The translations under genes and the position numbers were made by a program. A DNA stretch of 26,983 nt, taken from positions 1 through 26,983 of the forward strand of contig CAZIXJ010000002.1 of NCBI GenBank assembly GCA_964542835.1, read 5' to 3'. This DNA comes from an uncultured Hyphomicrobiales bacterium (lineage in GTDB: Bacteria; Bacteroidota; Ignavibacteria; Kapaibacteriales; UBA2268). Shown here in pieces: positions 13,932 to 19,003 of this stretch (position 1 is its first letter; each line of letters opens with the position of its first letter). Below the pieces are notes generated by a model, which was not told the DNA's origin, did no database searches, and saw only the letters and a list, made by a program, of their open reading frames with translations.

Positions 13932-15626
13932 ATGAAAAAAAACGATAATAATGCAAATTTTGTTGTAACGGCACGAAAATGGCGACCACAAAAATTCAGT
14001 GAAGTGGTCGGGCAAGACCATATTACGAAGACTCTTCAAAATGCAATACTCTCGAACAGAGTTCACCACGCTTATCTTTTCAGCGGACCGAGAGGAGTAG
14101 GCAAGACTACGACCGCCCGCATATATGCACGTGCTGTTAATTTCCCCGAGTCAATAGATATGAGTCCCGACGAAATGCCTCAGGGCTGCCGTGATATTTA
14201 TGACGGCAGGTCTATGGATGTAATCGAGATAGACGGTGCTTCCAATACAAGTGTGGAAGATATCAGAGGGCTGCGTGAGAATGCAAAATATCCGCCGTCT
14301 TCCCTCAAATACAAGATTTACATCATTGATGAGGTGCATATGCTTTCCAAATCTGCATTCAATGCACTTCTGAAAACTCTCGAGGAGCCGCCGCCACATT
14401 TGCTTTTTGTATTTGCAACTACTGAAATCCACAAAGTACCGGCTACAATTCTGAGCCGCTGCCAGAGGTTTGATTTCAAAAGGATGAACTCAGCAAGCAT
14501 TATCAAGCAGCTTACTCTTATCGCCGAAAGTGATGATATCAAACTTGATGAACAGGCTTTGATTGCAATAGCCAAAAAAGCCGACGGTTCTATGAGAGAT
14601 GCTCAGAGTATTTTCGACCAGGTAATTGCATTTTGCGGGAAAGATGTAAAATATTCCGATATGGCAGATGCCCTGCATCTTGTGGATGAAGATTTCTTCT
14701 TTAAAATAACTGATGCAATTATTGAAAAAAATAATTCTGTTATGTTCGACCTCACATCAAAACTCGTTTCAAAAGGTTATGATTTGAAAGAAGCACTCGA
14801 AGGACTGCTGGAGCATATCAGAGATTTGCTTGCAGTAAAAGTAACAGGCAACATCAATATTATAGAAGCTGCCTCTTCGCACATCAGAAAATTTGAAGAG
14901 ACTACGGAAAAATTCACAAAATACGATTTTATCAGAATGATGACTATAATAAATGATGCAATAAAAGATATGAGGTTTTCTTCGCAACCGAGAATAAGGT
15001 TCGAGCTGGCACTTTCTCAGCTTGCCTCGATTGATTCATCTTCTGATATTACCGAACTTTTAAACGAATTAAAAGAACTAAAAAAAAAACCTGAATTAAT
15101 CGGAGCATTGAAGGAGCCACAGACTGAGTACAAAACAGAAAAAAAGATTAAAAATGAAAGTGCCCCTGTTCATCAGACTAAGGAACCAAAAACACATAAA
15201 AGAGAAGAAACTCGGGAAAGTACTGATTATAATATAAAATCAGACCCGAACCTTGATAATTGGAAAAAAATGCTGAAAAGCAAAAACGCAAGAGATATAT
15301 CTGCTTTTCTTGAGAAGTCTTTCCCTGAATTTTCCGATGATAAAATCATTGTATCGGTAGATTCTACTTTTATATTTGATTCGCTCGAACAGGCTGATGC
15401 AAGGATGAAAGCGGTAATTAATGAGTTTTTTAACGGTATGGAAATAGAGCTGAAACTGGATGAGAATATTAATGCAAATAAATATAATTTTAATGAAATC
15501 CAAAGTATTAACAAGTATGATGAAGAAGATTCGTCTAAACAAAAATTAAAAAAGCAGGATATGAAAAATCTTCATCCTCTCGAACTTGTACTGGTAAATG
15601 AATTGAATGCAAGGTATGTAGGATAG
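13932..15626 (+). CDS. dnaX: DNA polymerase III subunit gamma/tau
   Basis: ARKWRPQKF, Walker A GPRGVGKTT, DVIEIDGASN, IIDEVHML, AFNALLKTLEEPP, SRC motif, GSMRDA. Confidence 0.98.
   Translation: MKKNDNNANFVVTARKWRPQKFSEVVGQDHITKTLQNAILSNRVHHAYLFSGPRGVGKTTTARIYARAVNFPESIDMSPDEMPQGCRDIYDGRSMDVIEIDGASNTSVEDIRGLRENAKYPPSSLKYKIYIIDEVHMLSKSAFNALLKTLEEPPPHLLFVFATTEIHKVPATILSRCQRFDFKRMNSASIIKQLTLIAESDDIKLDEQALIAIAKKADGSMRDAQSIFDQVIAFCGKDVKYSDMADALHLVDEDFFFKITDAIIEKNNSVMFDLTSKLVSKGYDLKEALEGLLEHIRDLLAVKVTGNINIIEAASSHIRKFEETTEKFTKYDFIRMMTIINDAIKDMRFSSQPRIRFELALSQLASIDSSSDITELLNELKELKKKPELIGALKEPQTEYKTEKKIKNESAPVHQTKEPKTHKREETRESTDYNIKSDPNLDNWKKMLKSKNARDISAFLEKSFPEFSDDKIIVSVDSTFIFDSLEQADARMKAVINEFFNGMEIELKLDENINANKYNFNEIQSINKYDEEDSSKQKLKKQDMKNLHPLELVLVNELNARYVG
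15078..15099 (+). other. Candidate dnaX recoding site (A10 slippage run) yielding a short gamma subunit
   Basis: CTA AAA AAA AAA CCT GAA TTA A with A10 at 15080-15089. The -1 frame reads ACC TGA (stop 15092-15094); the +1 frame reads AAC CTG AAT TAA (stop 15097-15099). Confidence 0.6.
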
Positions 15627-15688
15627 TTTACATTTTTTATATCTGTTGTGATTTTGATATTTAAGAAATAATATAAAGGAATTATAAT

Positions 15689-16159
15689 ATGGCTTTAGAA
15701 GCAGGAATAAAAGCACCCGACTTTACTGCACCGATTAACGGCGGTAAAGAAATATCCCTGAGCGATTACAAAGGAAAATGGGTTGTGCTTTACTTCTACC
15801 CGAAAGACAATACATCGGGCTGCACAAAAGAGGCTTGCTCTTTTAAAGATAATATGGATGAAATCACAAAATATGATGCAGTAGTGCTTGGAGTAAGCAA
15901 AGACAGCGTAAAAAGTCATGAGAATTTCATTGCAAAGCATAATTTGAATTTCGATTTGATTTCCGATAAAGAGCAGGAAATTCTTAAGCTGTATGATGTA
16001 CTCGGCGAAAAGAAAATGTACGGAAAAACTTATATGGGAACTATCAGAACAACTTATTTGATAGACCCTGAAGGCACAATAAGAGAAGTCTGGAGCAAAG
16101 TAAAAGTAGCAGGTCATACTGAAGATGTAATTAAGAAACTGGAAGAATTAAAAGGTTAA
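15689..16159 (+). CDS. bcp: Thioredoxin-dependent thiol peroxidase (BCP/PrxQ)
   Basis: YFYPKDNTSGCTKEAC motif (peroxidatic and resolving Cys), RTTYLID; AAGGA SD upstream. Confidence 0.95.
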   Translation: MALEAGIKAPDFTAPINGGKEISLSDYKGKWVVLYFYPKDNTSGCTKEACSFKDNMDEITKYDAVVLGVSKDSVKSHENFIAKHNLNFDLISDKEQEILKLYDVLGEKKMYGKTYMGTIRTTYLIDPEGTIREVWSKVKVAGHTEDVIKKLEELKG

Positions 16160-16162
16160 TTA

Positions 16163-17662
16163 ATGATAGATACGCATTGCCATATAAATACGGAACAATT
16201 TGATGAAGACAGAGAAGATGCTCTGCAGAGAGCTTTTGATTCGGGAGTGGAAAAGATAATAATTCCCGCAATAGAGCCGAAAGATTACGAAGAGTTACTC
16301 GAATTTACCAACAGCCACGATAATGTATATTGCGGAATGGGAGTTCATCCTCATAATTCTGATGAATTTTCTTCGGAAGTTGCCGAAACGATAAAAAAGA
16401 ATATCCGGGAAAATAATAAAGTAGTGGCAGTTGGAGAAATAGGGCTGGATTACTATTATGATTTCGTTCCAAAAGAAAAGCAAAAAGAAGCATTCAGAGA
16501 GCAGTTAAAAATCGCCAGAGAGCTTGGGCTGCCTGCAATAGTGCATAACAGAGACAGCGATGAAGACCTGCTTTCCATAATAGAAGATGAGCAGGATGGC
16601 AGTCTGAAAGGAGTAATTCATTGCTTTTCAAGCCCTGATAATGTAATGCAAAGAGCACTTGATGCGGGATTCAACGTTTCTTTTACGGGTAATATTACAT
16701 TTAAAAAATCAGACCACAGAGAAGTGCTGGAAAAAGTGCCAAAAGACAGATTTATGCTCGAAACAGATTCGCCATATATGGCACCAGTGCCAAAAAGAGG
16801 CAAAAGAAACGAGCCTTCCAACGTAAAATATGTAGCTGAAAAAATTGCTGAAATAAAATCTCTACCAATTAACGAGGTGATAAAAATGACAACTGATAAC
16901 GCAAAAAAATTGTTCAGAATTTCAATGATGATATTTTTCCTTTCTGTATTTTCACAGAATTTATATGCTCAGGATTATGATGACGAATATTATGATGATG
17001 CTGACTCTTCATTTTATTATATTACGCATCCTTATCCGAAAACTTTTGGTATTGGTGTAGTAGCCGGTTCTAATACATTGGTTACTACTTACAGAGATGA
17101 CGATGATAAAGTTTCAGATGCAGTGCTGTTTGGTTATGGTGTAAGCTTTGACTATCAGTTGCTTGATTTTCTCCTTCTTGACGCTACTTATCTATATACC
17201 AAAAATGCCAATAATGTATTGACTGTAACAGACCAGTTCGGACAGGAATGGGAAAACAATCCGAATTATGACCATTTATTTGAAGTAACTTCCAACTGGC
17301 TTTTCAATCCGTATAACAGAGTAAACTTTTATGGTATTTTAGGATTTTCTTATTTATATACCGATATTTCGCAGATTGATTACACTGACGATGCTGTAGT
17401 AATAGACGAAACAAGCACATCAAACTTCGGTATAGCATCAGGCATAGGATTTATAACGAATATTCCGATAGAACCACTCGGGCTTTTCGTAATTACTGCA
17501 GAGTGGAGACTAAACTTTATGCTTAACGATGTTACTCTCGAAAACGACCCGAGAAAATTCAAAGTAGCAGATGAGCCGGGTTCAGCATTTTATAATGAAG
17601 TAGATGTAGGAAAGTTTTATTCCATACCGCGTGTAATCTTAAAATGGTATCCTGAATTTTAA
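16163..17662 (+). CDS. tatD: TatD-family nuclease fused in frame to a signal peptide and an outer-membrane beta-barrel domain
   Basis: TatD motifs DTHCH, GVHPH, GEIGLDYY, HNRD, HCFS, ETDSPY, NAKKLF (aa 1-~252). Then hydrophobic ISMMIFFLSVF and LYA|Q (A269), then alternating beta-strand patterns ending PRVILKWYPEF. Confidence 0.85.
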   Translation: MIDTHCHINTEQFDEDREDALQRAFDSGVEKIIIPAIEPKDYEELLEFTNSHDNVYCGMGVHPHNSDEFSSEVAETIKKNIRENNKVVAVGEIGLDYYYDFVPKEKQKEAFREQLKIARELGLPAIVHNRDSDEDLLSIIEDEQDGSLKGVIHCFSSPDNVMQRALDAGFNVSFTGNITFKKSDHREVLEKVPKDRFMLETDSPYMAPVPKRGKRNEPSNVKYVAEKIAEIKSLPINEVIKMTTDNAKKLFRISMMIFFLSVFSQNLYAQDYDDEYYDDADSSFYYITHPYPKTFGIGVVAGSNTLVTTYRDDDDKVSDAVLFGYGVSFDYQLLDFLLLDATYLYTKNANNVLTVTDQFGQEWENNPNYDHLFEVTSNWLFNPYNRVNFYGILGFSYLYTDISQIDYTDDAVVIDETSTSNFGIASGIGFITNIPIEPLGLFVITAEWRLNFMLNDVTLENDPRKFKVADEPGSAFYNEVDVGKFYSIPRVILKWYPEF

Positions 17663-17670
17663 AGTGCCGC

Positions 17671-17697
17671 AGGGAATGTAATACGATTAGATTCCCT
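17671..17697. terminator. Hairpin between convergent tatD-OMP and DUF218 genes
   Basis: AGGGAATGTAAT-ACG-ATTAGATTCCCT, 11 of 12 pairs, 9 nt after the stop at 17662; only a short U-tract (TTTAT). Confidence 0.5.
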
Positions 17698-17773
17698 TTA
17701 TCCTCAGATAGAGGGCAGTCGGAAGATAATTGAAAATTCAAAACAATTAATCTGATTGATTTTTGATAGGTTA

Positions 17774-18436
17774 TCAATTATTTGCTTTTTCTTCTGAAAA
17801 CTTGTGGTCTCTGTATTTTTTCAGCATATCAAGATAAAAGTCTTCGGGAAGAACCTCATAAAGAGCAAATACAAAAAGCTCTTTATTAATTCTTTGCCAA
17901 ATATCAATGTAATCAAAAATGCCGGAAAGCTCCAACGGATAAGAGCTATAGCAATAGTCTTCCCTTTCTGTAATTTTTGATATTCTGTAAATATGAAGAG
18001 GAGAGCTGATGCACATAATTCTCTTATACCTATTCTCTTTTATAATTTTTTCCGCTTCATTCCAATTTGTTTTGGTGTCATATGAAGCGGAATCATAATG
18101 AATATATTTCGGTTTTACATTTTTTGAGATAAGGTATTGGGCAGATAATTGCGAACCTTTGATAGAGCCGTCAATTCTGTTTCCTCCTACAAGCACAAAG
18201 CTCCTGAACCTTTTTTCGGAATGTAATTTCAGTGCATAATTAAGCCTTTTTTTCTGCATCTCGCCAATCTGCTGCAAATCATCGTCATAATCTCCAAAGA
18301 AAACAATAGCAGCATCATACAAATCATAGCAGTGGTTAGAATTCCAAAAACTTTTATAGTTTTCAAACTGAATAATTGCTACTGCAATATCAATTATCAG
18401 CAGTGCTATTAATACTTTTAAAATTTTGAGTATCAT
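17774..18436 (-). CDS. YdcF/DUF218 (ElyC/SanA-like) envelope protein
   Basis: N-terminal TM anchor; AAIVFFG, RLNYALKL, LVGG, SYDTKTN, ISSPLHIYR match DUF218 motifs (ST.EN, TS..H..R). Confidence 0.8.
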   Translation of the reverse strand: MILKILKVLIALLIIDIAVAIIQFENYKSFWNSNHCYDLYDAAIVFFGDYDDDLQQIGEMQKKRLNYALKLHSEKRFRSFVLVGGNRIDGSIKGSQLSAQYLISKNVKPKYIHYDSASYDTKTNWNEAEKIIKENRYKRIMCISSPLHIYRISKITEREDYCYSSYPLELSGIFDYIDIWQRINKELFVFALYEVLPEDFYLDMLKKYRDHKFSEEKANN

Positions 18437-18439
18437 TTT

Positions 18440-18892
18440 CTAATCTTCTGTATATTCAGGGAATCTGTATTCTATTACTCCTTTATCATTTACGTCTATT
18501 ATGCAATACCCTTTGGTTACCAATGTTTCCATAAATTTTTTCGTGTCATCAAGGCTGCTGCCCAAGCCAAGAGCAGCTTTGGAAAGAGTAAGTATGCCCG
18601 AATTATCAATAGCAGCCATAATTACTTTTTTCTCCTTAATTGCATATTTCTTCTTCTCATGAAGAGCATCTTTCCCTTCAAGTTTTTTCTTCACTTTCAT
18701 TTTGAGATATAAACCAATCCCCATCGGTAATATCCCGATAAAAAATGTACCCATAAGGAGATTGCCGATACTATCCGTATCAGTACCTGAAAATAAACCA
18801 ATTAATATCAGGACAGTAGTAACGGCGCCCCAGTAAAATAAAATATTTGCTGCTATTTTCATAATTCCGACATTATTATCATTTGAATTCAT
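18440..18892 (-). CDS. Hypothetical two-TM membrane protein with C-terminal winged-helix-like segment
   Basis: Two hydrophobic helices, then GILTLSKAALGLGSSLDDTKKFMETLVTKGY...GVIEYRF. ATG 18892 chosen because GGTGG lies upstream; the ORF track start at 18931 looks over-extended. Confidence 0.65.
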   Translation of the reverse strand: MNSNDNNVGIMKIAANILFYWGAVTTVLILIGLFSGTDTDSIGNLLMGTFFIGILPMGIGLYLKMKVKKKLEGKDALHEKKKYAIKEKKVIMAAIDNSGILTLSKAALGLGSSLDDTKKFMETLVTKGYCIIDVNDKGVIEYRFPEYTED

Positions 18893-19003
18893 AATTATAT
18901 TCCACCAATTTGATATTAGAAAAAAATGCAATATTAATTTCCAAAAATTAAATAATTTTTTTGAAAAAGACTATTTTTTTTTAATAATCTACATAACTTT
19001 TTG

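Follow-up and report, generated by a model that had tools for sequence, protein, structure and literature searches.

How does a cytoplasmic nuclease come to share one uninterrupted reading frame with an outer-membrane protein? This question is raised by a gene on contig CAZIXJ010000002.1 (assembly GCA_964542835.1) of an uncultured bacterium of the order Kapaibacteriales, whose first 26,983 nucleotides (nt), hereafter the window, were analysed in this study. The open reading frame (ORF) 16163-17662 on the forward strand joins a TatD hydrolase of the cytoplasmic type to a signal peptide and an outer-membrane (OM) β-barrel, and this arrangement is conserved. An earlier note, written without database searches, had proposed that the ORF encodes a possible polyprotein, from which signal-peptidase cleavage could leave TatD tethered to the membrane and release the barrel. 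We favour, with a probability of roughly 70%, a two-in-one gene: a long form (the complete chain) would be made alongside a short form initiated at an ATG nested in frame within tatD, and the barrel would come mainly from this second start (M242).

A single reading frame conserved throughout the clade

16163..17662, forward strand: long form, consisting of TatD, signal, linker and barrel; a single open frame, the same in relatives and in database clusters

The frame comprises 499 codons plus a stop codon (17660-17662), contains zero internal stops and continues for 247 residues beyond the TatD domain. Searching with its C-terminal part gave matches in 39 of 41 genomes from this family and order, and every one of them falls within a single open frame; the full-length frames among them measure 454-544 amino acids (aa), while two shorter frames, of 471 and 344 aa, are incomplete. 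Fifty loci from different genomes were read, and each runs from the TatD start through the signal to the barrel in one frame. The same frame is found in the 120 best database clusters listed, to which the counts for 120 homologs given below refer (467-512 aa, 99-100% coverage). These clusters originate from Kapabacteria, Ignavibacteria or 'Bacteroidota bacterium' bins and, where they are named, bear no other label than 'TatD family hydrolase' or 'TatD DNase family protein'. The fusion of TatD, signal and barrel in a single stop-free ORF is therefore real, as had been claimed.

Could an assembly or sequencing error, or a private mutation, simulate such a fusion? According to this explanation a base lost in AGAATTTCA masks an ordinary ATGA-coupled gene pair, and the earlier note had staked its claim on relatives or reads not having one base fewer at this place. 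The sole hint in this direction is a TGA at 16926-16928 in the +1 frame, and nothing else speaks for it. The 39 genomes that keep one frame belong to many genera, the 50 loci were read without a single interruption, and the ATGATG sequence is absent from most relatives, in which an ATGA layout is thus impossible. Furthermore, the stretch 16900-16970 is spanned without a gap by contigs from three further sequencing runs (X2, X3 and X5), two of which belong to other samples of the study that is the likely source and the third to a different study, at ~96% identity. We accordingly give the error next to no credence.

A programmed frameshift at the A7 run 16907-16913 (GCA AAA AAA TTG, which fits X_XXY_YYZ in frame) was also considered and was rejected, as relatives do not share the run and show AAG AAA or AAA CGT in its place. 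Read from the sequence, the -1 frame after the run gives a tail of ~20 residues with no tidy end.

As to the occurrence of close relatives, microbialite metagenome contigs (X5, about 96% alike) cover parts of 16100-17700 and place such relatives in those samples. Parts of the same interval are covered by salt-lake metatranscriptome contigs (X9, 90-99% alike), which speak for the presence of relatives and not for transcription or for its starts and ends.

An intact TatD enzyme at the N-terminus

16163..16918, forward strand: TatD/YcfH-type metal-dependent hydrolase/exonuclease, aa 1-252; assigned by PF01026, TIGR00010 and relatives in the PDB

The whole Pfam profile TatD_DNase (PF01026) is matched by aa 2-252 (E 3e-87; 292.5 bits against a cut-off of 27), and NCBIfam TIGR00010 is matched with 279.6 bits (cut-off 206). 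The nearest solved relatives are the YcfH/YabD-type structures 2gzx, 6l25, 1j6o and 1yix (E 1e-53 to 1e-59). The metal ligands H5, H7, E92, H128, H153 and D202 align with those of the solved TatDs and are invariant among 118 homologs. The domain thus has the same full TIM barrel and all the metal ligands of the TatD/YcfH/YabD family, of the YcfH/YabD type, and stands in a housekeeping gene setting.

It is at its end that the protein departs from the family. Known TatDs are stand-alone cytoplasmic proteins of ~255-265 aa, with a stop a few residues past the helix that ends in ...LF, whereas here no stop follows shortly after this last helix, and the soluble stand-alone form is not encoded as such; the helix also encodes a start codon, a Shine-Dalgarno (SD) motif and the n-region of a signal. 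A search of the bacterium's own genome (94.65% complete) gave a single PF01026 match, which makes this the only TatD found. Since it is the only one and its catalytic residues are invariant, every active TatD molecule would begin as the long form. The fusion also makes it of interest to ask where the sole TatD of these bacteria does its work.

The C-terminal part forms an OmpA/OmpX-like barrel

17045..17659, forward strand: 8-stranded outer-membrane β-barrel, aa 295-499, ending ...WYPEF; assigned by AlphaFold2, Foldseek, VIA-align and the ESM Atlas

The AlphaFold2 model of aa 270-499, computed with 114 homologs, shows eight long strands with a predicted local distance difference test (pLDDT) score of 91.2 and a predicted template modelling (pTM) score of 0.84. 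The top Foldseek matches of this model are OmpA, Ail, OmpX, NspA and OprG/OmpW. By VIA-align the Z scores are 16.7 for NspA (root-mean-square deviation (rmsd) 2.7 Å over 151 residues), 16.1 for the OmpA transmembrane domain, 15.9 for OprF-N (rmsd 1.8 Å) and 15.8 for OmpW; over these four structures the rmsd ranges from 1.8 to 3.4 Å across 133-171 residues. The ESM Atlas yields OMP_b-brl clusters at template modelling scores of 0.64-0.74. The 8-stranded outer-membrane protein (OMP) that had been guessed from the amphipathic strands is borne out by the model (pLDDT 91.2, eight strands, Z scores of 15-17), and so is the terminal Phe, exactly as quoted: the chain ends with F499, and 68 of the 120 homologs end in F, the remainder having short extensions. 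From these features we infer that the barrel is located in the outer membrane.

The full-length model shows both domains at pLDDT >90 and an overall pTM of 0.56; together with the helix at 253-264 and the disordered linker at 269-285, this value indicates two independent domains. The idea, also put forward earlier, that the barrel links a surface channel or receptor to DNA processing finds nothing to support it. The domains are modelled as independent of each other, and 8-stranded barrels of the OmpA/OmpX type are too narrow to act as a DNA channel.

The barrel resembles the OmpA transmembrane domain, OmpX/Ail, NspA and OmpW/OprG (PF13505) in its fold, its signal peptide and its C-terminal aromatic residue. 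Unlike these small OM barrels, it has no Pfam match, has motifs of its own (GTNTIVE, AEWRLNF, FFSIPR....WYP.F) and is not encoded in a separate reading frame. Because of the missing Pfam match and its own motifs, we regard it as a distinct sequence family, as far as sequence comparison can define one. A precomputed PF13505 match is present on ~8 of the 120 homologs and on one stand-alone relative (P0128, see below), yet there is none on the 499-aa protein itself.

Does the barrel also occur without TatD? Searches restricted to short lengths gave 1 match with the single sequence and 8 with the profile. Some of the 8 are fragments of fusions, cut by contig ends and starting inside TatD (P0122, P0124, P0127), and four of the 8 carry a partial PF01026 match. 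Only two genes, P0121 and P0128, were confirmed as stand-alone barrels (~250 aa; L014 163-915 and L053 2488-3243). Each begins with an N-terminal signal of its own, which is followed by an A|Q site, an acidic linker and this barrel; neither is preceded by tatD, and both adjoin glycosyltransferase genes. Because these homologs carry N-terminal signals of their own, the barrel is, to judge from their sequences, an exported protein in its own right.

A predicted signal peptide at the junction

16886..16969, forward strand: signal peptide of the nested product, and internal signal in the long form; read from alignments of 12 and 50 loci
16967..16972, forward strand: predicted signal peptidase I (SPase I) site A269|Q270; from pattern rules, with Q at +1
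16970..17044, forward strand: acidic, Tyr-rich, disordered linker, aa 270-294, ending with a conserved NPY.K-type motif; from model and alignment

The two domains are joined by a segment with the layout of a Sec-type signal. F251 is followed by a short hydrophobic stretch, L-Y-A269 (nt 16967-16969), Q270 and the acidic Tyr-rich linker, so that the regions can be placed at aa 242-252 (n, the end of the last TatD helix), 253-263 (h) and 264-269 (c, with L-Y-A). The n-region is basic, the hydrophobic core is ~11 residues long and the -3/-1 rule is satisfied. In 115 of the 120 homologs a small residue is followed by Q, with A, S or G at -1 and mostly A, S, L or V at -3, and the last charged residue precedes the cleavage site by a median of 17 residues. 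Q270 itself is conserved at 90% or more. The linker, whose acidic composition is conserved, is predicted to be disordered (pLDDT <50 for aa 269-285).

A glutamine at +1 is what the Q-rule of Bacteroidetes SPase I substrates leads one to expect, and the Q-value of Ignavibacterium album is 77% (PMC5837995). In a crude scan of the signal-like ORFs of the present genome, Q was 5.9-fold enriched at +1 and Cys, as in lipoproteins, 7.9-fold. The signal, its L-Y-A269 and Q270 and the linker thus read as the earlier note had quoted them, and A|Q fits both SPase I and the Q-rule. The proposal that the terminal helix of TatD doubles as the n-region is likewise supported.

A different fate can be imagined for this segment, namely that it is never cut and that the product is a bitopic inner-membrane protein with a cytoplasmic TatD, one transmembrane helix and a periplasmic β-rich domain that never reaches the outer membrane. 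The hydrophobic segment (253-264) is indeed modelled as a helix in the full-length model, and K248, K249 and R252 favour an N-in topology. The core is short, and a polar c-region containing a -3/-1 site comes after it, as in a signal rather than an anchor; the β-rich domain is a closed barrel of the OM type with a C-terminal aromatic residue; and the stand-alone homologs have ordinary N-terminal signals. If the barrel sits in the outer membrane, the linker of ~25 aa is probably too short to span the periplasm. We consider an uncleaved protein very improbable, and by its build the signal looks cleavable.

A probable start codon nested within tatD

16874..16881, forward strand: Shine-Dalgarno-like GAGGTGAT, codons E238-V239-I240, at -12 to -5 of the nested ATG
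16886..16888, forward strand: nested in-frame start M242 of a predicted 258-aa pre-barrel protein; from the conserved ATG column and the SD spacing

The in-frame SD motif and ATG at 16874-16888 had been missed by the earlier note. The ATG (16886) lies nine codons before F251, and the GAGG of GAGGTGAT occupies positions -12 to -9. This is where the genome places such motifs: over 1192 clean gene starts the frequency of G rises from 8% to 27-35% at -11 to -8 (18-35% across -12 to -7), and the share of GAGGT is 4.1% in upstream regions and 0.3% within genes.

The ATG and the motif vary together. Among the relatives with an ATG at column 242, E238 is encoded by GAG in 22 of 23, against 27% GAG in the rest of the same genes (binomial P = 6e-12), and GAG is kept at this position even in a genome where it makes up 4% of Glu codons. 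Where column 242 lacks the ATG, E238 is GAG in only 5 of 16 cases (Fisher P = 2.6e-5). The same dependence is seen at a second site, E230 being GAG in 12 of 13 loci with an ATG at column 234 and in 12 of 45 without it (Fisher P = 3e-5). A synonymous site that tracks the position of a start codon is hard to explain otherwise and suggests selection for internal initiation.

The start is not always found in the same column. Among the 63 loci with signal and barrel the nested ATG stands at column 242 in 34, at 234 in 14, at 240 in 6 and at 248 in 3; the column-248 families have a classic M-K-L-F-K... signal, and families that might be taken as startless mostly carry the ATG at column 234, behind a GGAG motif. 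Altogether 58 of the 63 loci have an ATG no more than 22 codons before the h-region, 40 of these with an SD-like motif. In TatDs without a barrel the methionine is missing: columns 232-255 contain no ATG in any of six stand-alone TatDs from this class, and the solved TatDs carry Q, A, V or A where M242 stands here. Taken together, these comparisons make it very likely that the barrel has its own nested start.

How does this bear on the polyprotein reading? Its first part, one conserved ORF, stands; the barrel need not derive from cleavage of the long chain, as an SD motif and an ATG are present at M242 and a nested ATG is found here and in 58 of 63 loci. In its pure form this reading holds that the barrel comes from the 499-aa chain only, by an SPase I cut at A269|Q270 that leaves TatD tethered, and that the ATG is unused. 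The frame is conserved throughout, as are the SPase-type site and the Q at +1, and the variation of the start column by family is what one would expect had the fusion arisen first and functioned with no nested start. Moreover, 5 of the 63 loci have no ATG in the 22-codon window and 18 no SD-like motif. What it leaves unexplained is that the SD-forming GAG is held against codon bias only in the presence of a correctly spaced ATG, and this at two separate sites, and that neither stand-alone nor solved TatDs have Met at these columns; in addition, a cell usually requires much more of an OMP than of TatD. We judge the pure polyprotein unlikely.

Several observations nevertheless weigh against the two-in-one gene. 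In eighteen of the 63 loci the ATG lacks an SD-like motif, and the five without an ATG in the 22-codon window comprise four with only GTG or TTG and one (L036) whose ATG lies further upstream; such lineages must rely on the internal-signal route or on a weak start. The P values above are overstated, the relatives not being independent samples, and the presumed use of the nested start is read from sequence comparison. The SPase site was placed by pattern rules, and the signal of the long form, whose export is presumed, sits 250 residues into the chain. Finally, a Pfam search of the whole protein with E up to 1 retrieved no OMP family.

How two products could be made

In the two-in-one gene as we picture it, ribosomes starting at the TatD ATG would make the 499-aa chain, as tatD has no stop of its own. 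Others would use the ribosome-binding site (RBS) GAGGTGAT and the ATG of M242 in the last TatD helix to make a 258-aa precursor, probably the main source of the barrel. This precursor, with an n-region borrowed from the C-terminal residues of TatD, would cross the inner membrane via Sec and be cut by SPase I after A269; Q270 would become the new N-terminus, probably cyclised as in Q-rule organisms, and the β-barrel assembly machinery (BAM) would insert the 8-stranded barrel into the outer membrane. Because the barrel start lies in frame inside tatD, tatD could not carry a stop, and the fusion would be locked in. The start columns differ between families, which suggests that the fusion came first and that nested starts were added or moved later.

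For the long form we picture, as its likeliest fate, TatD on the cytoplasmic side (N-in) and cleavage at the same A|Q, which would give a second copy of the barrel. TatD would then keep the signal peptide at its C-terminus and be held by it in the inner membrane, pending its clearance. That the long form does insert N-in and is cut in this way, leaving TatD with a membrane tail, we rate at about even odds. The stronger proposition, that every TatD of the clade is born as a 499-aa precursor which Sec and SPase I split into an OM barrel and an inner-membrane-tethered TatD, with the nested start operating alongside, we hold tentatively, at somewhat below even.

The long form might instead be a tolerated by-product of a real nested gene, remaining in the cytoplasm with an unfolded tail that is trimmed or degraded, while the barrel comes from M242 only. 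The covariation of GAG and ATG agrees equally with this explanation. The RBS of TatD is weak (AAGG only) and would keep the long form rare, and an in-frame overlap is irreversible by simple mutation, so that conservation of the frame alone is no proof of function. An unfolded barrel in the cytoplasm would, however, be costly, and the signal, with basic residues before it, has the N-in/C-out build of ordinary bitopic proteins whose cytoplasmic N-domains are large. As no second TatD was found in the genome and the active site of this one is conserved, with invariant catalytic residues, the long form is probably not mere waste. We find a by-product slightly less probable still than the pure polyprotein, and prefer the two-in-one gene with a long form that matters.

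Range and variants

The barrel profile was run against 301 genomes sampled across the phylum and matched in 19, all of this order or of one neighbouring family and all fused; in the other classes of the phylum, within the same sample, there was no match. One family of the same class has a longer variant of 601-663 aa (L064, L066, L070, L072, L074, L076), in which TatD and an internal signal ending with A|Q precede a coiled-coil-like stretch of many charged residues (Arg and Glu), and the chain closes with a barrel-like part (...YFGWF...). It has a conserved in-frame ATG at column 240, and its C-terminus is missed by the barrel profile (A1).

In another family of the class, TatD is fused in frame to a CxxxCxxC radical-SAM-like domain (L082 and L083, 461-477 aa), and these fusions have no signal peptide. 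Other ORFs of 453-500 aa in the class may also be of this TatD-radical-SAM-like type. Several families of the class have ordinary stand-alone TatDs of about 256-308 aa.

Comparison with known systems

Internal initiation within a bacterial gene is already known. IF2 alpha/beta, ClpB 93/79, CheA L/S and SpaO/SpaO-C are proteoforms made from in-frame internal starts. The present case shares with them a second SD motif and ATG inside a longer ORF, in the same frame and giving a shorter product. In those examples truncation yields a shorter copy of one protein, which stays in the compartment of the longer one, whereas the two tatD-barrel products share ~10 functional residues, have unrelated folds and are predicted to work in different compartments, and the long form lacks a stop of its own. 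What would be new is thus an unrelated pair split over two compartments, the absence of a first stop, and a helix that is RBS, start and n-region at once. A literature search found no published description of a TatD-signal-barrel architecture.

Substrates of SPase I that follow the Q-rule (PMC5837995, PMC10653852) have the same motif of a small residue followed by Q that is present in 115 of 120 homologs here, and the genome shows the +1 bias for Q. The long form differs from them in that its signal is internal and not N-terminal.

The ~500-aa proteins filed as 'TatD family hydrolase' would accordingly hide an OM protein family and a nested gene that have been missed throughout the clade. If the two-in-one gene is true, one helix has three roles, as the end of an enzyme, as RBS and start codon, and as the n-region of a signal. 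A frame that cannot be split by simple mutation could serve as a model of gene locking through in-frame overlap, and the long form as a natural test of whether Sec and SPase I can process a signal that lies 250 residues from the start of a chain. If the long form is also cleaved, it would be a natural bacterial 'polyprotein' split over two compartments by SPase I, with two products from one translation event.

Neighbouring genes and flanking sequence

15689..16159, forward strand: bcp/PrxQ peroxiredoxin gene; NF006960, 151.5 bits against a cut-off of 140

The stop codon of bcp lies 3 nt before the TatD ATG (16163). In the clade, bcp is the immediate upstream neighbour in 23 of 40 flanked loci (recorded for loci in the ranges L002-L012 and L055-L073), and dnaX precedes it in the window and in five loci with a long enough flank, giving the order dnaX-bcp-tatD. 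A functional link between bcp and TatD through oxidative DNA damage is possible.

A promoter scan of 15500-17900 gave 7 sigma-70-like sites against 8.2 expected, and no internal promoter can be claimed. An Rfam search of the window returned no RNA family. Just past the stop, at 17672-17699, GGGAAT...ATTCCC followed by TTT could be a hairpin terminator with a 13-nt loop; the terminator scan permits loops of 3-8 only, and this candidate thus falls outside its list. Further downstream, two ORFs on the reverse strand, 17774-18436 (220 aa) and 18440-18931 (163 aa), have no NCBIfam match; the second is, by the look of its sequence, membrane-bound.

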